From: Curvularia clavata
Taxonomy: Eukaryota
DNA length: 64,000 nucleotides
Assembly (NCBI GenBank): GCA_023920165.1
Contig: CP089280.1
Coordinates: 930,001 to 994,000 of the forward strand
Direction: 5' to 3'
The number at the start of each line of letters is the position of its first letter. Positions within the stretch are counted from its first letter, which is position 1. This document shows positions 3,978 to 34,100 of this stretch, piece by piece. A program made the translations under genes and the position numbers. Below the pieces are notes generated by a model. It was not told the DNA's origin. It saw only the letters and a program-made list of their open reading frames with translations, and made no database searches.

Positions 3978-5497
3978 ACTGGTCAGCACATAAACTGCAT
4001 TGCATCGGAGTTAGGGCTTCACGCGGATGGTGGAGTGCAAGTGCTGACCACGCCGACAAAAACGCGTATACCCACGGAACTCCGTCAGCGTTTGGGCTTC
4101 CAAAAAAAAAAGCGTTGAGTATTCTCAACTATCCGAAAAAACACGGCCGTTGTGCACGATCTCTCTACCTCTCCATGCGCCGATGATTATGTGAAACCTC
4201 ATTCGTTGCTGCTCATGCTCACTATTGGGTTGTTTATTCGCTACATAATCTTGCTACCTTTTTTAAAAGGGCTGGACTGTTATGAGCTTTTCACTTCTAT
4301 TCGTCCTGAGACTGTTCGACTTAACCATTGTGCTCAACGAAGTTACAAGTGTCATGAAATTTTCCAGTGGGATTGGCTATATGTTCGGCCACATCCGGTC
4401 GGGTCATTTACGTGAGCTCGTATCTATTGGAAATCACAGTCTGTAATTCAGGCTTCCCTTTGCCACAAACACAGTTAGCTGTCTCTCGGTTCCTGTCGCA
4501 AGTATCGAGTTGAACGCCTTGTGCGACAATACGGCTCGATCCATCTTGGTTCCCCGCACGTAACCTTTGACCGTCGGGGGGTTTGTTTTACCCATGTTCG
4601 GCCATGCTGCCCAGTCTATGCAGATGCCGGGGTGGCGTCGTATACCATATCGACGTTGGGTACTAGTATCTTTCTACTTTGTACGATCGATCTCTCCAGG
4701 CATTATCCGTCCGGCTGCAATTTAGCTGTCTGTTATATACGTGCGGTGGCTGCAGACGGACCTGCGACTGTTGTCAGAGTATCACGTGAAGTATTAGAAA
4801 TGCACCCTCGCATCGCCATCAAGTTTCTGTTCGGGCGCCGGATGTCGGAACGAGGTGATTACCGATGCGACAGATCACCTCTGCAGCGCCAGATGCGGAG
4901 GACACGCCCCTCCACCAGCAGTAAGTCCGGGTAGCTTAGTCCCGAATGACGACGTCCTGTAAGCGAAGCTCACAACAACTTACTTCTGCTTTGCCGATGT
5001 TGCGCGTGCATTTGCCTTGTGCACTTGGACCTAGCGGAGATACGGCGTTTAAGCACTGGCCGCTTCATAATTATTCATTCCGTCGGAGCGTCCTTTGCGT
5101 CACTGTCTCAGTAATCCAGGGCACTCCTTTTTTTTCTTTGGAAACGTTCATCCGGTCTGGTAGCCAGGTACCAAGAAAAGCCGAGAGCTGCAAGAACGAA
5201 TAGTAAAGAGTGAACGACTTGTGTGCAGAAGCAGAAGCGCTAATCATACGCCGGGAACCAAAAAAGGACCGCATGGGTATGCCGTGGTAACGTGGAGTAA
5301 ATCTCGGCCCTGACCTTAACTGCGGACGAATTGCGGTCGGCACCCCAATTGTCAGCTCCACATGCGCCGTTGCCATCGCATTACGCGCGCCCCGCTATGA
5401 AAGTACGGCCGCACCCTTTGCAATACAATGTGTCGGCAGATCAGAGTCTCATGTTTTAGTGTGCGACCACAGATCTTTAATGGTTTGTCAAGTCACT

Positions 5498-16077: not shown

Positions 16078-16339
16078 ATTTAGCTTAGACTGAATCCTGA
16101 ACAATAACATCAAAAGTTATATCGCGATCCACCCTGTGGGTTCCAGATCATCTCCACTTTTATATGCACCGAGAGCCACTGTGATGCCGCTGAAGTCACA
16201 ATCACGGCCTCGTGAGGTAGAATACGTCGACAAGGTCGTGATGCTTTAGCTAACATGCCAGGCTCGAATATTGGACTTTATGCGTACTTACTCTAAGTTG
16301 GTATCCAAATTCTTGTTAAAATACGACTGTAGATTGGAT

Positions 16340-17280
16340 TTTATCTACTTCAGCTGCCCACCGTAAAGGCCAGAGACTCGGTATGTTCGCATTTTGTGTT
16401 TTCAACGAGAAGTAAAAGGTGCTCGAACCAGCTCGAAAGAAGGGGGATATTCGAGCCCTCATCGAAACATGGGGCGCGCAATCCGAATACCATGGCATAA
16501 TACACGTCATGGAAGGGTTGTGTAGGGCGTACCTTGGCTCATCCATTACTCAGCCAACTTTGAGCTTTACTGCTGCTAGGACTATATGAAATGAGAGTGA
16601 GAATTTGCCAATCGGAGAAACGAGTGAGCGTGACATACCTTGATTCATCGCATAGAGATCAAGGTCCCAGCAACGGGAGACCAAATCGATGGTGTCGATG
16701 AACGCGCGAATCTCGAGCTGTGCTCGGGAACCAACAAATGGTAGGTTCATGGTAGGGTTGTCGGCAAGCGAGGACAGACCGCCGTTCAATCCGTGGCCCA
16801 TAAGGCCAACGACTATTCATCCATACTCGAACAAATGTCCATGACACCGACCGTGTCCGCAGTCACAGAATCATGGTCCTTGCTCATGAATGGATCATCA
16901 TGATCTTAACATCCAGTAGCATTCAGGCGTGGTCAGCGTTGGTTTCTTGGAGCTGACTCACGACACCATCAGGCTGAGCAACCAAATTTCCGACAAGGTG
17001 CAGCGAGATCTCGTCCGTAAGCGCCTGTAGCACGTTTTCAATGATTGGGAGTAATATCTTGAAGCAATCTTCGGCTTCGACGTTATCGATGGGATCTTCT
17101 GATAGACTCCGCTTTTGATTAGTGTCTTGTGGACAGCTGGCGAGTAGATGCGTATTAACTTACCTTTTGATGGCGCAGGGCAAACATAAGAGAGTGCCAT
17201 GCTGCATTCAGAAGTGTGATCGAGGCTACACTATCTTGTATGCCACTAAAAGCATATAGCGATAGGCCGTATAATGTTTA
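16340..17280 (-). pseudogene. Decayed multi-exon gene of unknown family
   Basis: A canonical 52-nt intron at 17112-17163 (gtaagt..cactaat..aag) joins ..LLNAAWHSLMFALRHQK to RSLSEDPIDNVEAEDCFKILLPIIENVLQAL... Further donors (gtgagt at 16961, gtatgt near 16637) and protein-like fragments follow, but no continuous stop-free model. Boundaries approximate. Confidence 0.35.
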
Positions 17281-18413
17281 GTGACGGCAAGCCTAGGCCG
17301 TCCGCAAGTGAAAGGCTTTTGTATTTGGCAAGCTCCATAGAAATTCATGCAAGAAACAATACAGAAAAGGAGGTTGAGGTGGCAGAGGTGAGAGAAGGGA
17401 GGAGCTGGAGCTAGAGACTCATGTATGTACTATGTGAGCCTTTCCGCTAGCGCGCTTCAGACACGATGTGAGTGCGGCAACAGAGACTGCGGTATACTTG
17501 CGGCGATCAATGAGAGCCTGGTAGAACTACAGGTGAATGCAACGGAAAACTCTAGTTAATGACAGTCTATCTGCGCTTCTCTCACCTTGTATACCATTGT
17601 ACACCTTCAACCTACCCTCTTTTATGCGTGCTTTTATGCACTTCTGTGAAATTTATGAGACGCCACAGGCTCAACATACAGGCCTAGCTCAATCGGGAAG
17701 GGCGACGGCTGCCTAAAAGGCGGGCCGTGGCCATGGGCCATGCGCGCACTAGATGAGTCAAACGAGACACATACTGTGTCACCGCTGGAAGCTCTGATTC
17801 GCCCGTCTATATGTTTTATAGTAGGTGTACAATAACGTTAGAACTTGTAAATTAAGACACAATAGAGCTACAGAAATACATCATCGACCTGCAAGCTTGA
17901 TGGATTTAGATATCAGCGACATGATTAGAGTGACATACGGCGACGATCGATGAAGATATCGAAAGAATTACTAAAGCAGAGATATGCACAGAATTGAAAA
18001 CATGAAAATATTGGTGGAAATTGCTAGCATAGAGACTAGGATCGCGATAACTGTCCTGCCCTGCATATTCTATCACAACTTAAGTTCGACGACTTCAGGC
18101 AGACTCCTACTGATTCTCCAACGTCAACGAGCTCATGCCTGTCTGTGTTGTTGCTATTGTTCTGCAGTCTGTACCAATATTAGTTTCTGGATCAGTACCA
18201 AGTTTCTGGATACAAAGGGCGCAACATCTCCTCAAGTCTTCCATTCGGATCGTCACTTTGGCTGCTCAGCCTCTCCCCAGCCTTCGACCTTTGGTCGGCT
18301 AGGGTGTGACTCATGTGATAGCGGAGATAAAAGCGCGTCCGCCATCGCCAGACCCTGTTGAAACCTAACTTTCTCCAGATATACTTTCCTCAACTAAACC
18401 TCTGCACTCAAAC

Positions 18414-19073
18414 ATGTCGAATTCACCGGAACAGTCCGTCCAGTCTCAGGGAGAAGAGCCAGTACTTTTCTTTCTTCCTAGAGATGATAATGGATATCTC
18501 AGCAACATGTACCTTAATAATTTTGTCTACGAGGACGGCCGCAAATTCAATTGCGTTGAGCAATTCTTTCACGCCGGAAAAGCAGAGTTATTTGGCGACC
18601 ACGAAGCTCTAGATCAGATCATGAAAGTCCGGAACGGCAGGAAGCAAAAGTCGCTTGGCAGAAAGGTTAAGGGCTTTGTAGAGGAAGAGTGGAAAGCAGG
18701 CAAGTACCAAATTCTTTTATTGTTAGACGGGAGCTGATAAAGTAAAGCTTGTATTGATGTCATGCGCCGCGGAGTCCTCGCCAAGTTTTCCTATCGGCCA
18801 AATAAAGACTTACGCCAGCGGCTCTTGGAAACAGGAAATCGAGTACTTATCGAAGCATCTCCTTTTGATACATACTGGGGCTGTGGTTGGTCCGCGGAAA
18901 TGTACTACGCATCGCCGAACAAGGACTATCCGGGAAGGAATGAGCTGGGCAAGGTACTCATGGAGGTAAGGGACATTCTTAGAGAAAAGGAAGCCAATGA
19001 GCAACATGGGAAGAAGGGAAATAACACAAGATCTGTGCAAGCCAAGAAGAAATCTCGGGATGAAGAGACATGA
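18414..19073 (+). CDS. NADAR (YbiA/DUF1768) family N-glycosidase
   Basis: Exons 18414-18699 and 18748-19073, with a GC-AG intron at 18700-18747. Motifs YLSNMY, VEQFFHAGKA, KSLGRKV, W-x6-VM..GVLAKF, LLETGNRVLIEASPFDTYWGCG, GRNELGKVLMEVR. Confidence 0.9.
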
Positions 19074-19399
19074 AGAGAAAGTAATCAAGAGATGACGGGG
19101 TTCGACTTATCAAGGCGCGAATGAGATATACCAGGCTGAGAATTGGGCTTTAGGGAATGTTTCGGCAGATAGTGAATTCAAGATATCAATCTTATGCATT
19201 CATCGTCTCTGATTAGATAGTGTGTATGCCATTGTGAAGCTTAAGATTCCAGAGTTTTACTCCGAAAATAATATTATTCTGTACCGCCTCCTATTGTATA
19301 CCTTACACAAGCCACAATCCTACAATATTTTTATCTTTAAAACTTTAAACCCTGTATAGCATAAACACGTAGGGTATGTTGACTAACGTGGTTAAGATG

Positions 19400-20040
19400 C
19401 AATTAGCAAAGAGTATTTCACCTACCTGCTTAACCCAGCACGGAAAAAGCTATAACTAAGCAAAAAACTGTAGCAGAATACTAAGTAATGGTGTGTATCT
19501 TCTTAATCCAGAAGGAACGCTCCAAGAAATATCAAGGCCACCTTCAGAACTCGACATGTCGAATGTTCACCAAGATGTAATACATACGGTATTGACAGAG
19601 CCCGTGACGCCTTCAACACGTGTGATGCCCACTATGCCATTTACCGTAGAAGGATTAATACTGCTACATGATTCGGTCAAGCGAGATGTACACAGTCCCG
19701 GTACGATCGCTGAGCAACGTCTTGGCAGGCGAGTTCAAAAGCTCGTAAGAGCCGCAAAAATCGCTACAGCTAGGCAGAGTCTCTTCCAAGAATACAACCG
19801 CTGTTTGTTCAATATCAACAAGAAAGGTGAGTAGCGGAGGAAGATATGTTTACGGGTCCAACAAAGTGGCAAAGGTCAAGGTAAAGTGATGAGCTATGAG
19901 GACCTTGAGAAAGCACGAACGGAGCGGGCAGCCAAGGAGAAAGCAGCAGCCGAGAAAGGCAAAGGGAAAAGTGTTGGTAAGCACAAACATGCTGTTCATT
20001 TATAGGAGGAAGGATTTACTTTCCCAGAAGCTGAAGCAGA
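19400..20040 (+). mobile_element. Degenerate pogo/Fot1-like (Tc1/mariner superfamily) transposase C-terminal remnant
   Basis: Broken frames give ..LNPEGTLQEISRPP..PVTP..RRVQKLVRAAK..QSLFQEYNRCLFNIN..GKGQGKVMSYEDLEKARTERAAKEKA, a typical Fot1-family tail. Stops and frameshifts present; no TIRs recognised. Confidence 0.75.
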
Positions 20041-20651
20041 ACGGTCCGTGAAAAGGGTCATCATGTCTCCGTGTCGCGAATCTACTGGTGTCACAAATTG
20101 TTTGGTATATGCAGCATTTAGCATCAGTCAAGTGATCATTGAATACATTTGACAAGATACCGTAGATACTACACTGCGATTTTAACCTCCTGGCATATTC
20201 TTGTTAGCTAGATGACAATATGATCAGGTGACTGTCCCGATTTGGGTGAAATGGGGTCAGCATAAACATAAGCGTGAAGCTAATTGGGTCGTTCCGATAT
20301 GCGGGTCATCCCACTGCATCGCGGCAAAGATAGCCAACAGTCCCACATTGCGACCGCCTTCTTGCACCGCCTATCTCACTCGGAAATTATTAATCCTAGA
20401 CGAAGCCAAAATTGTCGAAGAGCACAGTCACAGAGGGACAAAGATAGGAACTGTCGAGAAGAAGAACCCAAGGCCAAGCGTCGACAGGCGCAACCCCAGA
20501 GAAATCGAGCCAGAAACCAGCGTGAGGTGGAGGGCAGGCTTGCACGGATGTTTCAGCGACAGCTAGTTTAGATTGTCAACCAGGCCTGTCAGCAGCTGTA
20601 CTGGAAGCCATACCGGAGACATCACCGTCTACCACATCGCTCCTGCCCATC

Positions 20652-21415
20652 ATGGAAGCACATTCGGTCAAGCTCGTGCAGAACATTGCTAAGTAGCATG
20701 AAGCCTATCAACTAGCGCAACAGCTTGATACTGATCTGCATTAGCATGTTTAACGATGCGAGGTACTCCGATACTACGGTCATTATCCGCAGCAAAGAAT
20801 TACATGTCCACAAAGCTATCATCTGCACACAAAGCAAATACTTCGAGAATGCATTCAAAGAAAATTTCGTTGAGGGAAGCTCAGGGAGGTTAAGCTTTGA
20901 CGAGGGGAGTGGTGCCGCCCACTGGAGAGTCTTCCAGTTCTTGTACACCGGTGATTATTCCGACGATCTATCGCATTATTTCAAAGGTATTTCCGTAGGA
21001 TCATGTATAGTTTCGACTTTTCTAATTGTTGTCAGACGATCCTGCACTGCTAAAGGAGCCTCGCGTATACGCTCTTGCTGACATGTTCTTTTTGAAAGAC
21101 CTGAAAACGGTTACCACAGCAAAACTTAAAAAAAAGCTGCTAAATCTCTGGAAGGACGACTCTTTTGCAGATTGCATTCGAGAGATATATGCCACTACTC
21201 GGGACAGTGACCGGGCGATGCGATCTGCTGTAGTCGAAATTGCGAAGGTTCACGCAAAAGAACTAGTCAAGAAGCCAGCTTTCACGGATTTGATCCACAA
21301 TGGTGGCGATTTTGCTGTCCAGTACTTTGAAAGTGTCGTTTCCCTAGTGCCTTTACAGGCAGACGTGTCAACAACCAAGCGAAGGCAAGCTCCAGATTGG
21401 CTTGATGAGATTTAA
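20652..21415 (+). CDS. BTB/POZ domain protein
   Basis: Introns 20693-20744 and 20987-21035. YSDTTVII..LHVHKAIICTQSKYFENAF..FVEG..FQFLYTGDY..VYALADMF. Confidence 0.88.
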
Positions 21416-23118
21416 AACTTCTTGATACAGTATAGCCGTCACGTAACTTCGGGCAGTCGTGGAGGACTGCTTGAGTCATACAATACGAAACGTGGAAGTC
21501 CATCATATCACGTGATCTTCAATGTACAAAGTCTCTATTTCTACTAACTATTCTATCAAGCTCATCAATATAGGGATTGATAGAGTTTGGTGAGTCTAGT
21601 ATAGGTTGCTAAAGATCGATAAGCTTGGCTTGACTCCGCTTCATCCTTGATTCAATCCAGCTTGATTGTTGAGATATCTGCTCCCCGGTTCCCCCTCACC
21701 CACGGCCAGACAAATCGTCTAAGGGTGATTTTGCCTAGACCCACACTTGATCAATGGCCTTCTTAATATGTGCTTCCTCGGGTTGTGGCAAGTCTTGGGC
21801 TTGACGTAGATCGCCATTACTGATACGCGCAAAGGCAAGACGATGACCATAGCCAAAGCAACCATAAGATATAAAAAAGCGCCAATCAGATAGAAACAAA
21901 TAACGCGCATAAGCAAGCAAAGGTATGAAGACCACTTGAGTCTGCTATGCCTTTGTTAGCGTAATATTTCGCTCTATCGGGATTTTCTCACGGCAACATC
22001 GTGATGGATTGAATTGATGCTGATGTGCAGATTGGCACAAGCAGATACCGCACGTAGTAAGGGTATCGCCCAGCGAGCGGATCAATCATTAGAGTTGATT
22101 CGTACACAACGACAAATTATTACCAAATCAATGCAAGCGGAAAGCTATTTGAAGTTCCTCAGGCATAGTCTAGCGATATATGAGAAGTATTCGGTTGGTA
22201 TTCATGGATATTCTACACACAGTAGCTGCTGTGGGCATATGGGTTTGAGATGCTAACCGGGCGCTGACGACCTTGGCAAGGTGTGCCTACCCGCACAGCC
22301 ACCTGCTATAAGCCACATCGATACTGTACACATTGACAGACGTAAATCGCCGTAGATGTAGCTAGGCCGTTATTGATAGTCTAGTCACGGTCGCGTCGTT
22401 CTGAAATACCTAAGGTTGCGACAACGCACAATCTTGCACGCCACTACTGTCAAAAGACTGGTACAGCTTTAGGACGCTCCAAATATGTCCAGGAGACTGA
22501 TTGAAATCTCGTGCTTGAAATTTTGAGCGGTGCAAGCACATTTCACGTCTATAATCGATCCCCGGTATGCTGGCTAGCACCCGTGTCGATCCCACACCTA
22601 CCGATCAAGAATGACGGCATGATATACCTATCCCAACGACGCATGCTCACGGGCGCGGCCCGCTATACGAATCATGTATACCAGCCCAACGCCCTACACC
22701 ACTTGAGAGCGGTGGAGCGGGAGGTCAGTACTCGACATACTATGAGTTCCACCTGAGATTCGTCTCACGACACCACCCGACTGCCAAACGTCCAGGCCTT
22801 CAAGGGAAAACTCTGACGAACATCCTAGCTACTGGTGGCACTATCAGCCACTTTGAAGCTTCATCTCGTTTCCACAGTCAGGATTTTTTCAACCTTTGCA
22901 TACAATTGGATGTTATGTCGCGCTTAGAGCCAATCGCAGGATCTTTCAATAATGTCATGCGCCGCATGTGCTCTTGTAGCGGGAAGCCTAAGGAGCAGAG
23001 CACGACTAAGTACATTACTTTCTGCATTAAAAGCCATCACAGATCAGCGCCCATATTATTCTCTTGGCTAGAAACGCTGTACCCTTCCAGCGTCGTCCTG
23101 TCCCAACTATCAATAGCT

Positions 23119-23913
23119 CTAGCTGCCCCTCCCAAACGTGAGCCCTGACAGTGTACCGGAGTTGTGGCCTATCTGAAGGCCATTATTTCCACTGCCTGAG
23201 AAAACGATATGGTGTGACTCCCCAGCATTCTTCATAGCCTTTGTGATAGCCTGCTCTAGCAACTTATCCTGGGTAGCAGCAATTTCTCTTAAAATAGAGA
23301 TGCCTTCACCTTCTCCAATAGCGGACACTTCCATGTCGCAGAGCTCACGCTGGGTCTGCTGAGTGGCGGGGAAAAGGGTTCCCAAGTCGTTGACCAAGTC
23401 GGTGATGTCTTCAATCAGTCGCCTAAAGTGCTTCTCTTGATACAAGGCCCACTTGGCCTTTTGCCGTATGCTAGACCGGTTCTGGCGCTCGATAGCTAGC
23501 TGGCGCATCTTCTCGTGGAGCTTCGCCGTCGCTAGATCTAGGTCGGTTTGTGGATCGTATACTGCAAGGCTGCTGTCCTGAGGCCCGGCTCGACTCCTAT
23601 ATTTATTCGATACGCCTTCAGTATCCGCAAGTAAGTCTACAATCTGGCCTAGCAAGGCTTCAGCATGCTTGACATTTGCCTCCGACCCAAAACGCTGTTG
23701 AAGCGATACTATGTCTCGGACATCATCTTCTAGACTTAGAGATTTCCCCCAGCGCGATAAGCGGAGTCTTGCATTGTCTAGTTTGAGTTGACTAGTTTGA
23801 AAGTCCTTTCCAAATGCGCGGCCAAGCTGGACGAACTCAAAGCACTCGACTGTATTATTGAAGAGGCTAGCGAGGGCAACGACGCCAACAACAAGACCGG
23901 CTGTCTCTGCCAT
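23119..23913 (-). CDS. HET-S-like HeLo-domain cell-death effector with C-terminal PP (RHIM-like) amyloid motif
   Basis: 264 aa from ATG 23913. MAETAGLVVGVVALASLFNNTVECFEFVQLGRAFGKDFQTSQLKLDNARLRLSRWG is close to the HET-S N-terminus. Also KAKWALY..FRRLIEDI, and C-terminus VFSGSGNNGLQIGHNSGTL. Confidence 0.92.
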   Translation of the reverse strand: MAETAGLVVGVVALASLFNNTVECFEFVQLGRAFGKDFQTSQLKLDNARLRLSRWGKSLSLEDDVRDIVSLQQRFGSEANVKHAEALLGQIVDLLADTEGVSNKYRSRAGPQDSSLAVYDPQTDLDLATAKLHEKMRQLAIERQNRSSIRQKAKWALYQEKHFRRLIEDITDLVNDLGTLFPATQQTQRELCDMEVSAIGEGEGISILREIAATQDKLLEQAITKAMKNAGESHHIVFSGSGNNGLQIGHNSGTLSGLTFGRGS

Positions 23914-24171
23914 GTCAGTCTGGCAGAATGAAGACAACGAGAATAGTAAGAACGAAATAAAAGAAGTGATATACAGGAGAGATCGAAGATGTAGGTTTCT
24001 GACTTGAAGCGCGTAGGCAGCAGCTACAGCGCGGTTATATGATAACGCACCAGCAACTCAGCTGATGCGCCAACCTCAGCCTGACGACTCAGCCTTGCGG
24101 CTAAGAGCAGCTGCGCCGCTTCGCAAAGCCTACAACAACACGCAAATCTATTCGCTGTCACATACGGCACA
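23914..24171. promoter_or_regulatory. 258-bp shared divergent promoter of the HeLo effector and the NLR
   Basis: Head-to-head ATGs at 23913(-) and 24172(+). CTCAGC occurs at 24057, 24075 and 24088. Confidence 0.6.
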
Positions 24172-26565
24172 ATGGCTCTCTCCAATGTCACCACCACATT
24201 CACAGGCCCAGGGAACGATGGGTTGCAGGTCGGCTACAACTCTGGCTCTATCCAGACGCACATCCACGCTCCTGGTAAGTGCCTGCCCCCTCCCGCTCCG
24301 ACTAACACGTTGCTCACGGGCTCTTCTGTACAGAACGCCCCGAGACTCCACCACAGCCCTCGTGCTTTGTGCCCTTCCGCCGCGACCCTGACTTTATCGA
24401 CCGTGGCACACTGCTTGACCAGATTCGCCAACGATGCGCTGCGCCAGCATCTCGCATCGCGCTGGTTGGCCTCGGCGGGGTGGGGTAGGTTTAGTGGGAG
24501 AGCATCAAACTAGTGCTCGCATGTCGCATGTCGTCGCATCTGACGTAGACACAGAAAGTCGCAGCTGGCTATCGAATACTGCTATCGCACCGCCAAACAG
24601 TCGCCAGACACGTGGGTGTTCTGGGCGCACGCGAGCAACACCGCGCGACTTGAACAGAGCTTCCGGGAAATCGCCGACCAGATTAAAGCTCGCGGACGGA
24701 AAGACCCGCAAGTAGACGTATTTAAGCTAGTGCACGACTGGCTGCGCGATGTAAGGAACGGACAATGGCTGCTAGTACTAGATAATGCCGACGATCCTGG
24801 TGTGCTCTCTCCGACCGATGGCAGCAGTGGTCTCCAACAACACCTGTCGAGGTATCTGCCTTCGAGCAGGCATGGTGCTGTTCTTGTGACGAGTCGGACT
24901 AAGCGAGCAGCGATGCAGATTGTAGAGGATATCGACATTATATCGATCGAGCCAATGCACGATACAGCTGCACACATTCTGCTCCGCAAGAAGCTAGAAG
25001 GCGTAGACGAGAAAGACGACAATATTGCAGAGCTAGCCACAACGCTCGATTACATGCCGCTTGCTCTCGTACAGGCAGCAGCATACATTCGAGAGCGAGC
25101 GCCACGATGTTCCGTAAAGCAATACCTTGAGGAGTACCAGCAGAGCGACCGTAGAAAGACGAGTCTGCTAAACCGGGAAGCGGGTCATCTCCGCCGAGAC
25201 GCAGCAGCCAGCAACTCTGTCCTAATCACGTGGCAGATCTCGTTCGACCACATACGCAGCACAAGACAGTCAGCAGCAGGCCTACTATCACTAATGAGCT
25301 TCTTTGACCGACAGGGGATCCAAGAAGCTCTACTACGCCGCCAGAGCAGCGCAGCAGACGACGGATTTGAAGAGGATGTGCTAGCCCTGCGAGACTACTC
25401 GTTCATCAAGGTAACTAGAGATGCAGACACATTCGAGATGCACAGCTTAGTACAGCTAGCGACGCGCACGTGGCTTGAAAACGAAGGACAGCTAGACAAG
25501 TGGAGGGAGCAGTTTATCTCGAACTTATGCGCACAGTTACCGACGGGAGAATACGAAAACTGGGAGAAGTGTCAGATACTATTCCCACACACACGAGTGG
25601 CATTAGAACAGAAGCCAAATAATATAGAGTCACTAAAGGAGTGGGCGCTGTTGCTGTTCAAGGCGGCATGGTACGCGTGGAACCGGGGAAGAGTAGGTGA
25701 GGCAGAGGAGATGGCGATAATGTCAATGGAGGTTAGGAGTGAAGTGCTTGGGCAAAAAGATGTAGGAACTCTAGATAGTATGGGAATGGTAGGGCTAGTT
25801 AGAGAGCTTATGGGCAAGTATGGGGAGGCAGAGTCGATAAACCGCCAGGCACTGGCGGGATATGAGAAGGTACTTGGGTATAATCACCCAGACACGCTAG
25901 CGAGTATGAACAACTTAGCTCAAGTACTAGACAAACAGGGCAAGTACGAAGAAGCAGAGACGATGCACCGCCAAGCACTGGCGCGAAAGGAGAATGTACT
26001 TGGGTATGAGCACCCAAGCACACTGAACAGTATGGGCAACTTAGCAACAGTACTAGACAGCCAGGGCAAGTACGAAGAGGCAGAGGCAATGCATAGGCAG
26101 ACGCTGGTGCTAAGTAAGAAGGTGCTTAAACATAATCATCCAGATACCCTAACGAGCATGAGTAATTTAGCAGTTTTACTAGACAGGCAGGGAAAGTACA
26201 AAGAGGCGGAGATGATTAATAGAGAGACACTGGCGCTGAGCGAGAAGGTGCTTGGGCATGAGCATCCAGACACTCTGATGAGCATATACTGTCTTGCCTG
26301 TCTTCTTACAAATCGGCGCTTCTACAAAGAGTCTTTTACTCTGTTCGAGAGAGCATGCGCTGGGTACGAAGCTGTGCTTGGGAAGGATCACCCAACTACG
26401 CGCTCGTGTTATCAAAGTTACGCTGACGCGCGAGAGGAGCACCAGCTTGCTATTTCCTCTACAATTTCGGACAGCAGCACACGTGCAAATGCAGGCAAAC
26501 AGTCAAAGCTGCTACGGGGGCTAGCAAAGATAGGCATTAGGAGCTCAAAGAGGCCTGTGAGATGA
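24172..26565 (+). CDS. Fungal NLR: N-terminal PP amyloid motif, NB-ARC, TPR repeats (PNT1-like architecture)
   Basis: Exons 24172-24274, 24334-24484, 24555-26565. Exon 1 is MALSNVTTTFTGPGNDGLQVGYNSGSIQTHIHAP. P-loop GLGGVGKS spans intron 2; Walker B WLLVLDNADD; VLVTSR; YMPLAL; MHSLVQ; 42-aa TPRs (VLGxxHPDTL). Confidence 0.93.
25687..26420 (+). repeat. TPR-encoding tandem repeat, 126-bp period
   Basis: GKY[EGK]EAE units begin at 25813, 25939, 26065 and 26191, with degenerate units on either side. Confidence 0.9.
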
Positions 26566-27015
26566 AGAGGAGCAAGCATGTATATTTCTACTACGTTCTA
26601 CAAACTCCTGTTTCGCTAGAGCTCATGTAATTTATCACATATACCTATCCTAGTACTATCCGCTCTAAAACAGGCTCCCACAGAGTCGTGAAGCGTTGTG
26701 GAGCGTTGTCAAAGTAGCTGGTCATTCAAACTCGAGCGAGTCATGATTACTATGCCGAATTACTGGCTACGCGGCTCTGCTCATGCTACGCCAGATGAAG
26801 GGTAGATCTTACATTACCGACGTGAAAGGATAGTATATCGCGACAACACTGTATTTCTACGCTTCGAGAAAGAAAATCGTATTGAGTCAAATCCGCAATA
26901 ACGCCGCGCCATTTGATGCACTATGTACTCCCCTACGCCAATTTTTATGCAACTCTAAGCTGACAGTGCCTTTGGCCCTAGGACGAGCCGATACAAATCA
27001 TCGAAATCGAAACCC

Positions 27016-28551
27016 TTACAGTTCGTAGTCATCCTCCTCATCGTAATCCTCGTCGATCTCAATCTTGCGAACAATATGGAGCGAATCACGGCGCTCAGGT
27101 GAAAGTTCTTCAGGTGCTGAGGTGGAATCCATCTGGTCACTGACACCTGTGGAGATGGAGGCATCTGCGTCTTTTTTCTCTGCCTCCTGGTTCTGTTCAG
27201 CATTCGGCGTCGGCTCAGGCTCCTCCTTAGATACCTCCGTATCTCGAATCTGTTCTTCTGGCGCTGGAGAAGCTACAGCACAATCATTCGGATCGTAAGC
27301 TCCGGCAAGCTCCAGAAGCGATTCTTCGTCCTCGCTGAGCTTCTGCTGACTCGAAAACGGCACTGTTGAGGTTTCGTCTCCATGGAACGAAGTCGTGATC
27401 GAAGTCTTTCTTGGCCGCTTACGGGCGGGAGCATCTTCTTCGCCGTCTTCACTACCGTGTTCCGCATCATAGGCCATCTCAAGGACTCGGCTTGGTGGAC
27501 CGAATGCACGCTTAGCACGTCCAGTCGCGCGTACAGCTTTGGCCTCAGCAGACTGGTCGCTGCGCCATCGTACCATAGTTGGGGCCCTCCCTGCGTCGTA
27601 AAGAGGCTTGTAAGTAGTATATTCATACCTCACGCTTTCCACAGTTCGGCCAGTAGAAAGATTGGCGAAACCGAAGCCTGTCTCAATGGTAAAGTCTTTG
27701 TTCATGAACCTCTCGTTGTGCCACTCAGTGAGGTCCCAAATGGATGCATCTGGATCCTCTCGGAGAAGTGCGGCTAGGTACTCTCGCTCAATGCGGGTCC
27801 AGGGCGCGTCCATTGTCGTCCGGTCGATGGCTTGGTAACGACGGTCGTTAAGGGCCTTGATTGACTGCATGTTGTTCCAATCTTTGGGCTTCTTCCCATA
27901 GCAGTACACTGTGGGAGTCTTCTTCGGCGTAGGATCTTTCTTGCTCTTTGGTCGCATGTCCATCATTTTGACCACGAGAAGGTCTTCCTGGTCAAGGTTT
28001 GCCTCAAGTTCTTCCACATTACCGGGTGCGATTGGGCCGAAGTACTTTACGAAACGGGACCCACGCTTGTAGCGGTAGCCCCGATCCTCCCATAACGGCG
28101 GATTGGTTTGGCCGTTGCTTTCCCGAGCAGAAGGCTGAACAGGATCTGGGCGAGGCCCGCCGGGCGAAGGCTTGCAACCCCAGAATGGGTTGTTTTGAGG
28201 CACTGTGATGTTGTGCTTGAAGTGGGCGAAGCCGTCACTGACGGGTGACTTCTTCGTCTTGGATTCTTGGCTTTTGAAATCTTTGTCGGATTTCTTGGTA
28301 GATGTAGCAGCGACGTCTTCGTTGTTTGATATTTCGACCTTATTGGCTTGTACATGGGTCGGGGAATTGAGAATAGACCATTCAGAATTCGAACTTTCAC
28401 AAGTCTGCACTGTTTCAGTAGCCTGGGAAACGTTTTCGAGGACACTTTCAGGCACTGGCGAGGCCTTGGTCTCATGACTCTCGTCTCCGATTTTTTGTTT
28501 CTTGGTAGGATGGTCATCCATAAGTGGAGAGTCAGCAGCCCGCTTAGACAT
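27016..28551 (-). CDS. Hypothetical nuclear protein with possible Myb/SANT-like segment
   Basis: 511-aa ORF. NLS-like PTKKQK and RKRPRK, APWTRIEREYLAALL...HNERF...GRTVESVRYEY, and an acidic tail. Confidence 0.75.
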   Translation of the reverse strand: MSKRAADSPLMDDHPTKKQKIGDESHETKASPVPESVLENVSQATETVQTCESSNSEWSILNSPTHVQANKVEISNNEDVAATSTKKSDKDFKSQESKTKKSPVSDGFAHFKHNITVPQNNPFWGCKPSPGGPRPDPVQPSARESNGQTNPPLWEDRGYRYKRGSRFVKYFGPIAPGNVEELEANLDQEDLLVVKMMDMRPKSKKDPTPKKTPTVYCYGKKPKDWNNMQSIKALNDRRYQAIDRTTMDAPWTRIEREYLAALLREDPDASIWDLTEWHNERFMNKDFTIETGFGFANLSTGRTVESVRYEYTTYKPLYDAGRAPTMVRWRSDQSAEAKAVRATGRAKRAFGPPSRVLEMAYDAEHGSEDGEEDAPARKRPRKTSITTSFHGDETSTVPFSSQQKLSEDEESLLELAGAYDPNDCAVASPAPEEQIRDTEVSKEEPEPTPNAEQNQEAEKKDADASISTGVSDQMDSTSAPEELSPERRDSLHIVRKIEIDEDYDEEDDYEL

Positions 28552-29929
28552 CTTTGCTATCGATAGAGGTATTCGATTTTGAGACGGAATGTGAATAGTG
28601 AGGCAAGGATACTTCGAGATTGGGTGACTAAAGTCTGTAGACTGACGGGATGATGATGTGCAGAGTCCCCGACCGATGCGTCTCTCCTGTTCCTATGGGC
28701 AATAGAATTGAAGATGGTTTCTTTTAGTTTCTTTTGGGTATTTCGGCTTTTTGTCGCAATATTAAGTGTCAATGGAGAGTTAAGTACGCCTGAGAATGGC
28801 TACTATGTATTGGGGTGAGTGACAGGTCGCTCTTAGTAGGAAGACGACGCATTAACAGTGCCGCCTGATAATTAAGAGGCATCACTGTTCGTTTGATTGC
28901 CTTTGAATGCAGATTGAGATGTCACTTCAACAAAGCCCAGGAAACAGTATAGCAATCGCAGTTCAACAATGTCCGTATAAAACAAAGAAAAAACAATGTC
29001 ATTTTCGCGTCGCAACACCTCGACCCGCCCCTCACAAAGCCGCCTTCTTTTGAGCGAGAGCTATTCAATCAAAAGTAATGCTGCCATTGTAAATGACCAC
29101 ATCCGTGTTCGCTCCAGGAAGTGGCAATCAGGAAGACCGAATACTTCATGGTTCGCAAATGGTTCAGTTTGATACAGGTCAATTCCACAAACGCTTGATG
29201 CCCGAATTGTGATTGCAATATTCTCACACGATCCTACTAGATATATCCTCAAAGTATGACATGAACAGTTGTCAGATGAGAGGCTTGTGAGATGAATGAC
29301 AGGTAGTCAGCATAGTGTAACATTGATTTTGAAGCGAAGCTGTAGCATTTTGAGGCTCTCTTATGTATTGTAGCCATCACATATTGGCGTGCGCTGTCTT
29401 CCGTTAGCCTCAGCCTTGTCTTGGGGGTTAAATAGAGCCGCGAACAAGATCAGTTTCCTGTTTTGCACCTCGTATTTTGCCTCTATCTAGCACTGCCACC
29501 TCCATTTCACATCGACACTTTTCGTCTTGGCATGACCATCGGAGGAGTGGTTGGGCGCCTGATGCGAGGGACGAAGTCAGGATAGAACTGGCGCGTCTCT
29601 CAACTACATTCTCGCCAAACTGAGGGTATCAGTTGGAAGTGGTGTTGTATTGATTAGAAGCGGGGTAGCTGTGTGTCCAATCGAATACCTAGGTACCTTC
29701 CTATATCACTCAGCTGAAGAGAAGGCTGTGAGTGCCAACATGCTGCTGCACTGCCACCGTCGCCGCCATGCAAAATGGAAGTTAAAAAGGAGGAAGCCGC
29801 TCAACCTGAACCTCGAAGTTTTACTAACGACCATCCCTACATACCGGGACGCACGGTGTAACGGGATAATTTTGGCTTCGGAGGCTCGCTGTATCCAATC
29901 TGTATGTGGATCGACTTATACTCGGTGTA

Positions 29930-30714: not shown

Positions 30715-31890
30715 TCAGGCATCATCCCAACTAAGTACCGTCAATATCAACATCAGTAAAGCGACGATAAAGCTTCCAGCGCCGAATATTACCTCCCAGC
30801 TGACCCCGAAAAGTTTTCCTCCAATTGCTACAGAAAGGAGGACACCCAGAAATACACCCAGGCATTTTCTAGGACACCACGCAGTCTCAACATACAAGCC
30901 ATCTAGTTCCAGATATCTGTTCTGCGGTCTGAACTCGTTGACTGGCAAACTGATGTTTCTGGTGATATTGATGTTAGTTAAATATCATAGCATATGTATC
31001 TAAGACTTACCTATAGTGATGAATGAAGCGATGGTTACTCAAGCCATTGAGAATGTTTTGAGAGCTTGCACCGGGTGGATCGCGAAAGTAGCAAGAAAGG
31101 AAAGATGCGGTTTTAATCCAAAGTATCTGATCGTTGCATCTGTCCCATTCCTGGAAAGGGCAGGTTGCAACACCAGACAATTTCGAAGAGTTGGTTGGGC
31201 AATCACTGTTGCAATGATTATATTCCCCAGAGCTGTCGCGATAGCAGTAATCCGGAAAATCGGTCGAATCGAAGTCTGCTATTAAATCAATAGTTTTTGC
31301 CGCTTCTTCCTGTTGTTCAGAATAACTCTTGTGAAATTTGTCCAGGTCTAAAGGCTCAACGAAGGCTAAGAATCTTTTCGAGCCAGAGTCACGGCAGTTT
31401 AATCGAAACTATGTTTAAATTTTAGTCTAGATAGGCACGCTATGAGACGGTGGGAACATACAGTGACGGGCTTAATTCTACTGAATCTTCGGAAGAAAAA
31501 CCACCTTCTTAAGAAGCCAAGTTCTTCATCATACTTCTTTTTTAATGAACCGAAGATTTCATGCTCATTTTCAACGTCGGTAACTGGAACATCCACCGCC
31601 CAGGTTCTGAAGCTTTCGGAGTTTTTAGAACCCCATAGCAAGAATACACAGCTCGCACCGTCTTTCTTCTCAGTTTCCTCCTGGAAGTAAGTGAAAATGG
31701 AGTTTTTGGGCAAGTTGGACGTCTCCCGTAAAACTTCGTACATAGCCTGTTGCCGTCTTCTTTTCTTAGATCTCTTCAGGACGTTGTGTAGAACAGGCTG
31801 GAACCCGGTCGCTCCCACAGCGATTCTTTCTGAGTGTTTAACTCGGGCTCTTTCTGGTCGTGATGGAAGGTCTACTAGCGGAGATGACAT
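30715..31890 (-). CDS. Orphan protein with two C-terminal transmembrane helices
   Basis: Three exons, 31890-31462, 31408-31011 and 30958-30715, with canonical GT-AG introns of 53 and 52 nt, splice to a stop-free frame. Cys-rich middle exon; ends CLGVFLGVLLSVAIGGKLFGVSWEVIFGAGSFIVALLMLILTVLSWDDA. Confidence 0.75.
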
Positions 31891-32149
31891 AGAGTAAATT
31901 AGGGTTGATAAAGACGATTGAAGACAAAGAGCTTGTAAATTCGCAGTATTACAAGACACAGCAACTTATACAAATGACAATTAGGCAAAACTGCTTTCTA
32001 AGGCTGTTGCTGTTGTTCCAGCGCAACGGATCTAGGCAGACGCACTGCCCGTCTGTGGCGGAGTAAGGCTGATTTTGACATAATCTATAACGTATTATCT
32101 GATTGGTCTATTTTTCTATCGTCTCTGTCTCATAGACGTGGGTGGGATA

Positions 32150-32730: not shown

Positions 32731-32871
32731 ACAAGCATGTTGCGGGTAGACCAAGGGTCCGGAAGAGAAAGTGTCCCGTTACACCGTGCGTCCCGGCATA
32801 TAGGGATGGACGTCATGGGAAATTTCTTGATCATTATCCTCAAAGCAGGCCCCTAGACTTTACCCTGCATT

Positions 32872-34100
32872 ATGGCCGAAGTTGTCGGAACGATCGCGGG
32901 TGCCATCACCTTAGCCTCTGTACTCGAAGCTTGCCTCAACGCAATCGATCTATTCCACAAAAGGCGGATTAGGACCTGAAGAGGCTTCTTGTCCGTTTGA
33001 ATATGAACGATAGCGATTGTACACTTTGGGAGAAAGTCCACCAAAGATCCCGGTTCAGGGAAAAGGTGCGTTCTTGAACTTGCGACATGTAAAGAGTTGG
33101 TCAAGGACACCTTGGAGGCGATGGAACGATTATTCCAGGATTTGGAAAAGTTTCAGGTGAGATATGGGTGTAAAGAGGTCAAAGAGACCTTGAGTCGGCG
33201 AAAATCCACTGGTTTGGATGACTCCGATCCAATGAACGATCTAGCAGCCTCGTTCCCACACTTTTACGTTCCGGAAACCTCCAACACTCTATCAAAACCT
33301 CAGCGAACCAAGGTTCTCACAAAAGTTCGATGGGCCATCTATGGCCGGAAAAAGTTCGATGGGCTGATTCGAGAAGTCAAAGACCTGGTTGAGGGTCTTC
33401 AAAATATCACGGATTCCATCTTCGCTACGTCCCGCCAAGGCGGAATGCTTCGTTTTGGAATTCAGCAGATCAAGAACTTGGATACGTTAGAGATAATATC
33501 GGCTGCATGTGAAGAGGACTATCCCGATATCTCTGATGCTGCGACTGTCAAGATGGATGTCATGACTGTTGGAAATTTCCAGAGTCAGGATGTCCAGGAT
33601 TGGCTTGATGGGACTCAAGAGGCTGGAGATGATTCTATTCTTCAAACAGTTCCAAAGCCTAACCCCGGTAGCGACAGCAAAAACAGTCTAAATGCAATAA
33701 TGTGTGAATATTTCCTTAAAAAGGGCTACACAGACGCAAGAGCAGTTCTGATAGCTGAGACGTGGGCAGTGCCCGATACCAAGCCAGCCCAATCAGAAGC
33801 CAACACTGCCGTCGCGAAAAGAAAGCCAGATGCTGCCCAAGATAATACTACGAATGATCGAGCGAGTACAAGCTCAGGGAAGAGAAGGCGAGCCACTAGG
33901 CAGAGTAAGTATTTGGGCGTTATTTGCCCCTATCGTATCGCTAATTTATAGCCAGCTTCGCGAACTCCAGCTTCAACGCAGCACTCCTGAGGCACTGCAA
34001 CAGGTGCACATCATTCATATATCCTTTGGGTGCGAGTCTAGCTTATAAGCTAATGAACACTTGGTTCCTGACGGTTATGACGGGGTGTCGTTATACTTAG
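32872..34100 (+). pseudogene. Frameshifted HeLo-family gene with a LisH-like motif
   Basis: ATG 32872 MAEVVGTIAGAITLASVLEACLNAIDLF, then frameshifts and a stop (DLKRLLVRLN / RLYTLGE / ..ELVKDTLEAMERLFQD..RYG), KVRWAIYGRKKFDGLIREVKDLVEGL, later SLNAIMCEYFLKKGYTDARAVLIAE. Intron 33905-33951. Confidence 0.75.

Follow-up and report, generated by a model that had tools for sequence, protein, structure and literature searches.

Amyloid-based signalling by the PP motif has been described in several fungal gene pairs. The motif was derived from HeLo proteins of two Arthroderma species, whose genes adjoin STAND (signal transduction ATPases with numerous domains) genes with the motif at the N-terminus (PMC3321046), these latter genes combining an NB-ARC nucleotide-binding oligomerisation domain (NOD) with tetratricopeptide (TPR) repeats (PMC3321046, Daskalov et al. 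2012). In a 2022 survey (PMC9815663), PP was the most frequent of three classical motifs on the N-termini of NOD-like receptors (NLRs), with 296 sequences, and was associated with pore-forming and enzymatic effectors alike. Here, we analyse a 64,000-nucleotide stretch of the Curvularia clavata genome (contig CP089280.1 of assembly GCA_023920165.1, positions 930,001 to 994,000 of the forward strand), referred to as the window, whose positions are used throughout. At 23119-26565 it carries a HeLo-domain effector gene and an NB-ARC/TPR NLR gene that share a PP motif, a pair that very probably forms a two-gene NLR and amyloid-signalling module for cell death.

By their published description, the Arthroderma otae and A. 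gypseum pairs have the same architecture on both sides, and their consensus fits both window peptides; the Arthroderma pairs belong to dermatophytes, while the nearest named relatives of the window pair are Pleosporales. Adjacent genes likewise share PP between NLR N-terminus and effector C-terminus in the PNT1/HELLP (and SBP) system of Podospora anserina and Chaetomium globosum (PMC7885112; PMC5485727), where the motif has the G-phi-Q-phi-G core common with RHIM, as in the window pair. HELLP is activated by PNT1(1-31), which forms a prion, and then moves to the membrane (PMC7885112). However, in the HELLP effector the domain is HeLo-like (HELL) and akin to the four-helix bundle of MLKL, whereas the window effector has a HET-S-type HeLo domain (PF14479), and while the PNT1/HELLP system includes a third PP-tagged gene (the SBP-like lipase), none was found by pattern in the 64-kb window.

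With respect to the effector fold, a closer counterpart is the NWD2/HET-S pair of Podospora anserina, as HET-S shares its HeLo fold with the window effector (E ~1e-34 against PDB chains 2wvn and 2wvo) and the logic is also the same, with the adjacent NLR bearing one copy of the amyloid motif of the effector. HET-S makes liposomes leak and forms a transmembrane helix (PMC3531502). Differences lie in the two-repeat beta-solenoid prion domain (PF11558) of HET-S, for which the window effector has no match, in the receptor (NACHT/WD40 in NWD2, NB-ARC/TPR in the window), and in residues 23 and 33, which are E/A in the window effector, A/H in HET-S (2wvo), and D/P in HET-s (2wvn). The metazoan RHIM of RIP1/RIP3 shows the core G-[ILV]-Q-[ILV]-G, present in the window as GLQIG and GLQVG, and partial cross-seeding of RHIM with PP prions is reported (PMC7885112), but only PP has the flanking pseudo-palindrome N.G...G.N and the two motifs do not occupy the same place in the pathway (PMC5485727). 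For Curvularia, Bipolaris, and Pleosporales, the matches listed in our literature search for HeLo, NB-ARC, or amyloid work were taxonomy papers without relevance here, which is no proof of absence.

The effector and the shared PP motif

The effector and NLR genes are divergent and arranged head-to-head, with 258 bp between their start codons. On the reverse strand, the effector coding sequence (23119..23913, stop included) is a single open reading frame (ORF) and exon whose translation of 264 aa is identical to the database protein P0001. Matches to PF14479 and to PDB chains place a HeLo domain at residues 6-201 (23311..23898, reverse strand). In fact, the effector gave 183.2 bits against PF14479 (E 7e-54, cut-off 23.2) over profile positions 1-198 of 205, and its residues 1-227 matched the PDB chains 2wvn, 2wvo, and 2wvq with E values from 8.8e-35 to 2.6e-31, of which 2wvn (E 8.8e-35) and 2wvo (E 3.9e-34) are labelled 'small s protein'. 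The N-terminal segment of the domain is hydrophobic, with a mean Kyte-Doolittle hydropathy of 1.6 for residues 1-19. Neither the HeLo-like family nor the HET-s prion domain (PF11558) was matched by the effector in Pfam at E ≤ 1. Since the HeLo-like match is lacking, the effector is, as judged from its sequence, probably HELLP-like in its working, yet placed outside the HeLo-like/HELLP family.

The C-terminal tail of the effector, residues 230-257 (23143..23226, reverse strand, with a core 18-mer at 23149-23202), matched PF17046 with 33.5 bits and an E of 3.8e-8 (cut-off 23.2), while exon 1 of the NLR, taken alone, matched the same family with 28.8 bits and an E of 1.1e-6, and the whole NLR protein did so at residues 8-28 with 23.6 bits. 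PF17046 is a 28-position model with the Pfam name Ses_B, and we infer that it represents the PP motif of the literature because the consensus agrees. The published consensus is FxGx(x)NxGLQLxGxNxGxL, a pseudo-palindrome centred on Q (PMC3321046); both the effector 18-mer and the NLR 18-mer (24199-24252) fit it, the L that follows Q being replaced by I or V and, in the NLR, the final L by I. Between the two 18-mers, 11 of the 18 positions carry the same residue. Moreover, their placement in these adjacent genes is at opposite protein ends, the C-terminus in the effector (230-257 of 264) and the N-terminus in the NLR (8-28 of 754). When all six frames of the window were scanned with the patterns N.GLQ[ILV]G.N, G.Q[ILVF]G.N.G, and N.G.Q.G.N, each matched both 18-mers and nothing else, and 200 base shuffles of the window, serving as a control for chance, gave means of 0, 0, and 0.005 matches, respectively. 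No Pfam match to the RHIM family was seen for the effector or NLR exon 1 at E ≤ 1.

A first-pass annotation, made from the letters of the window, had proposed a true HeLo effector that bears one PP motif, lacks a HET-s prion domain, and faces an NB-ARC/TPR NLR. Here, the PF14479, PF17046, PF00931, and TPR_10/TPR_12 matches, together with the absence of HeLo-like and PF11558 matches, bear this out in full, and by our ORFs and pattern scan its coordinates, 258-bp gap, and 11/18 identity are all correct.

Gene structure, transcripts, and domains of the NLR

Splicing of the NLR gene, which lies on the forward strand, was assessed with contigs of four public runs (X1, X3, X21, and X22) placed on 23000-26700. 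Exon 1 (24172..24274; 103 nt, with the ATG at 24172) carries the PP motif, as detected by PF17046, and is joined to exon 2 in X1, X3, and X21. The 59-nt intron 1 (24275..24333; GTAAGT...CTAAC...CAG) appears as a GT..AG skip in four contigs from three runs (two from X1 and one each from X3 and X21). Exon 2 (24334..24484), taken from the gene model and identical to the database protein P0123, encodes a linker and the beginning of the NB-ARC domain as far as the first half of the P-loop, which the 70-nt intron 2 (24485..24554; GTAGGT...CAG) splits between GVG and KS. The skip of these 70 bases, again GT..AG, was found in one contig each of X3 and X21, while the intron is retained in X1. X22 gave only short, low-depth pieces that include neither joint, and we conclude nothing from that run. 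Exon 3 (24555..26565, stop included), defined by its ORF and Pfam matches, holds the remaining NB-ARC, DUF7779, and the TPR array. A single 1146-nt contig of X21 runs through 24071-24273, 24333-24483, and 24554-25322, and X21 contigs also cover exon 3 at 24554-25322 and 25293-26554, with one difference each.

Four GT..AG combinations for intron 2 would keep the frame, but only 24484/24555 leaves GLGGVGKS undisturbed and yields 754 aa; the other three alter the P-loop, two by deleting part of it and one by inserting residues. Every residue of the spliced NLR agrees with P0123 (754 aa), whose public name is 'TPR-like protein [Curvularia clavata]'. Both introns had been predicted at exactly these positions, with exon 1 spliced to the NB-ARC exons, and the intron-less contigs agree with that prediction. 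Moreover, both intron positions are conserved in relatives, because the tblastn alignments break at residues 75-86 in the loci L001, L002, L005, L014, and L015, and a 'GKC' read-through at the 5' splice site of intron 1 is conserved across related loci.

As regards the effector, a 936-nt contig of X21 (record 8, 23051-23964) spans the gene with no joint, and thus both genes are transcribed in at least one run. The 258 bp between them (23914..24171) are presumed to be a shared bidirectional promoter together with both 5' untranslated regions (UTRs), and in the seven metagenome loci with both starts aligned, equivalent pairs have start codons 233-376 bp apart. Since the X21 contigs stop at 23964 on the effector side and begin at 24071 on the NLR side, in both cases with adapter-like loose ends, the transcript starts of the two genes appear to be at most ~106 bp apart.

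The NB-ARC domain of the NLR (PF00931, residues 75-282; 24453..25146, spanning intron 2) scored 24.1 bits (cut-off 23.5), while NACHT, with 25.0 bits, fell under its cut-off of 26.7. Visible in the protein are GLGGVGKS and LLVLDNADD, which we take to be the P-loop and a Walker B-like motif, respectively. Pfam places DUF7779 at residues 320-394 of P0123, and the putative sensor array of 42-aa (126-bp) TPR repeats follows at approximately 25700..26400, where TPR_10 and TPR_12 match in 5-6 stretches with E values of 1e-66 to 2e-67. At the DNA level, the 126-bp tandem repeats at 25812-26285 show 77-80% matches. In this array, the contigs of X1, X3, and X21 have joints that skip 133 bases or go back 221-232 bases, which we read as repeat-number differences or contigs of paralogous TPR genes. 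Such variation in repeat number also fits the lengths of the named NLR orthologues, which range from 749 to 1093 aa (749, 761, 835, 844, 1023, and 1093).

Conservation of the pair and its surroundings

A search with the effector gave 344 proteins at E ≤ 1e-5, and we considered the best 120 of these, with 63-100% identity. Precomputed matches to both PF14479 and PF17046 are present in 110 of the 120, and the other 10 have PF14479 only, although most of these carry, by eye, a slightly altered PP motif and in two the C-terminus is truncated or divergent. Most of the named sources belong to Pleosporales (Paraphoma, Pyrenophora, Alternaria, Ophiobolus, Plenodomus, Didymella, and others), with a few from outside the order. 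An exhaustive search among representatives at 50% identity gave 1927 proteins at E ≤ 0.001, and the best 150 of these, a sample in which ranking by likeness to the query favours PP, were scanned with Pfam. While HeLo was found in all 150, PF17046 was detected at E ≤ 0.001 in 25 (21 above the cut-off) and the HET-s prion domain PF11558 in 17 (14 above the cut-off), with no tail family recognised by Pfam in 108.

Joining a HET-S-type HeLo domain to a PP motif had been put forward in the first-pass annotation as an amyloid-module swap, with its novelty tied to HeLo-PP pairs not being already catalogued as common. The novelty does not survive, as HeLo-PP pairs were described in 2012 (PMC3321046) and are common, with 110 of the 120 best homologues carrying both families.

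The head-to-head arrangement is conserved as well. Of the 16 loci that we found on metagenome contigs, three have ≤146 bp upstream of the HeLo start, and the remaining 13 have at least 300 bp. An opposite-strand coding stretch for a PP motif lies upstream of the HeLo gene in all 13 loci with sufficient upstream DNA, being recognised by pattern in 11 and by tblastn in the other two (one cut by the contig end and one a G-to-A variant), and the NLR itself was matched by tblastn in 12 of the 13. At both termini, the PP motif is kept in 12 independent pairs. One of the loci, L002, has a second PP-NLR N-terminus downstream of its HeLo gene (4861-5265, forward strand), besides the divergent upstream one, and the motif of this downstream copy is nearer to that of the window NLR than is the motif of the adjacent NLR in L002.

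Among the 120 listed NLR homologues, the motif was located within the first 70 residues in only 18, and the 102 without it are mostly metagenome ORF calls. The precomputed Pfam list of P0123 also omits PF17046, though exon 1 is present and a fresh scan gives 23.6 bits. Given that the motif barely passes the Pfam threshold and that ORF-style calls drop it, surveys will undercount PP motifs on the NLR side. The expectation that automated gene models could miss exon 1 thus fails for P0123, which includes it, but is in keeping with the 18 of 120 homologues in which the motif was retained.

Other protein architectures link the two components directly. In P0255, HeLo is fused to NB-ARC-TPR in one protein, and in P0252, HeLo, two PP stretches, NB-ARC, and TPR occur in one model, which may be a merged gene model; both architectures support a functional link between effector and NLR. 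Further HeLo architectures among P0252, P0255, P0258, P0327, P0251, and P0271 include HeLo-HET and HeLo-ankyrin, and Goodbye-HeLo-PP proteins are represented by P0284 and P0305, an architecture also found in the 2012 paper. The organism itself probably has at least two HeLo-PP effectors, as P0109, a paralogue of 264 aa that is 69% identical and has PF14479 and PF17046, is filed under the same species name as the NLR record.

Within the window, a second HeLo gene is found at 32857-33951 (forward strand), ~6.3 kb downstream of the NLR stop. Its ORF 33007-33948 matches PF14479 (E 1.4e-17, profile positions 71-203), and the short upstream ORF 32857-32979, beginning MAEVVGTIAG..., resembles a HeLo N-terminus, suggesting that the gene has two exons. 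Its tail of ~150 residues matches neither a Pfam family nor the PP pattern. Downstream of the NLR, the next gene is a 558-codon frame with an acidic C-terminus (27016-28692, reverse strand), without a Pfam family at E ≤ 0.001, and the ORFs 22615-23145 (forward strand) and 31402-31965 (reverse strand) likewise match no Pfam family. Beyond the 3' end of the effector gene, the ~6.5 kb at 16100-22600 lack any ORF of ≥150 codons, and their G+C content is lower (0.43-0.49).

Proposed mechanism and alternative readings

We consider the locus a two-gene PP-type NLR and amyloid-signalling module for cell death, with a probability of roughly 0.85. The domains, the homology of the motifs, the gene structure and splicing, transcription, and the conserved head-to-head layout were established here, while oligomerisation, amyloid templating, membrane attack, and cell death are predicted by analogy with NWD2/HET-S and PNT1/HELLP. 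On this model, the NLR would be the sensor, with its TPR array binding a ligand and its NB-ARC domains then oligomerising. The N-terminal PP motifs, once clustered, would nucleate a cross-beta (amyloid) fold, which in turn would template the single C-terminal PP motif of the neighbouring HeLo protein, and the templated effector would expose its HeLo N-terminal helix for an attack on the membrane. Templating of the NWD2/HET-S type, which the first-pass annotation had also invoked, is the accepted reading of such pairs (PMC5485727, PMC7885112).

Several points weigh against this reading. Two of the Pfam assignments on the NLR exceed their cut-offs only slightly, by 0.6 bits for NB-ARC (PF00931) and by 0.4 bits for PF17046 in the full protein, and the NLR is short at 754 aa compared with 835-1093 aa for named orthologues, such that its TPR array may be reduced. 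That X1, X3, and X21 derive from RNA is a guess, backed only by their intron-less contigs. Moreover, the characterised PP systems (CgHELLP, and HELLP with PNT1) use HeLo-like effectors (PMC7885112, PMC5485727), and a limited look at the PP-motif literature turned up no experiment with a HeLo(PF14479)-PP pair. Nor do the motifs give backing for specific templating, as no pair-specific co-variation between effector and NLR motifs was detected among the 12 pairs, where the mean identity within pairs (10.7/18) is matched by that of 132 non-partner comparisons (10.8/18). Because the motifs of partners resemble each other no more than those of non-partners do, specificity within the HeLo-PP family, if any, is on this comparison presumably not encoded in these 18 residues. 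Among the same pairs, the effector motifs are conserved at 16.2/18 versus 12.8/18 for the NLR motifs.

A further such point is residue 23 of the effector, a Glu that is acidic like D23 of non-toxic HET-s, though this is the family norm. In Podospora, H33P alone turns HET-S into the HET-s type, while the reverse change needs both D23A and P33H (PMC3531502). Residue 33 of the window effector is Ala, aligned to P in 2wvn and H in 2wvo, and it had been suggested to fit a toxic, HET-S-like form. We rejected Ala33 as a marker of toxicity because it discriminates nothing, since none of the 120 close homologues has Pro33 and neither does any of 151 aligned sequences (the query together with the 150 representatives). 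Equally rejected was the notion that Glu23 signals an inactive, HET-s-like form, with E or D at this position in 117 of the 120 close homologues and 102 of the 151 aligned sequences. Because Pro33 is absent from the homologues and E/D at residue 23 is their norm, the Podospora two-residue rule cannot be transferred here in either direction.

An alternative that we hold to be improbable is that the pair was recruited for allorecognition (heterokaryon incompatibility) in the manner of het-s/het-S, where an allele that spreads as a harmless prion would kill on fusion with a strain of the toxic allele. Loss-of-function changes in HeLo did give rise to HET-s from HET-S (PMC3531502), and the contigs of X21 show an apparent, sharp haplotype boundary within the locus. 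Relative to the window, they differ at 37 of 914 letters in the effector gene, 10 of 203 in NLR exon 1 with its 5' UTR, and 4 of 151 in exon 2, but at only 1 of 769 and 1 of 1262 in exon 3; that is, 4-5% for the effector and exon 1 against ~0.1% for the NLR body. However, this mosaic rests on contigs of one run whose kind is unstated, the HeLo domain is intact and highly conserved with no HET-s-type Pro33 in either homologue set, and according to PMC3531502 there is no evidence of het-s/het-S incompatibility outside Podospora. Many of the X21 variants on the effector side also occur in X1 and X3, which have another organism code, and intron 2 may lie near a recombination boundary. Doubtful, though somewhat less so than allorecognition itself, is the idea that the signalling half of the locus (HeLo-PP gene, intergenic region, and PP exon) evolves and recombines as a unit apart from the NLR body; if true, this would mean an allelic, possibly balanced or introgressed, exchange of a matched amyloid pair.

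We regard it as similarly improbable that the module, while transcribed, is non-working, for instance through a shrunken TPR sensor, and a relic of birth-and-death NLR evolution. The NLR is indeed shorter than the orthologues of 835, 844, 1023, and 1093 aa, its TPR units are only 77-80% alike at the DNA level, and the 69%-identical paralogue P0109 of the same species makes redundancy possible. Yet orthologues of 749 and 761 aa are of similar size and make such a length unexceptional, both frames are open, the splice sites, P-loop, and Walker B-like motif are intact, and transcript-like contigs cover both genes. Finally, the motif is short and compositionally biased, and the identity within pairs is no higher than that between pairs, which might point to a chance or low-complexity G/N/S-rich likeness of the two 18-mers without a signalling role. 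This is effectively refuted by the two matches at the expected termini against 0-0.005 expected per shuffle, by scores of both peptides above the curated Pfam cut-off, and by the recurrence of the motif at both termini in 12 independent pairs and upstream in 13/13 metagenome loci.

With the amyloid-signalling module as the favoured reading, the architecture of the locus has been known since 2012 and is common in related fungi, so that we have here a further intact example that adds little conceptually. A HET-S-type HeLo domain with a single PP motif is, rather than an oddity, the dominant form in Pleosporales. The locus, or any orthologue, could serve to probe the modularity of motif and executioner, and if the HeLo-PP gene and PP exon do recombine apart from the NLR body, the widespread HeLo-PP family would offer a natural way to see with what freedom amyloid tags and HeLo executioners can be recombined.

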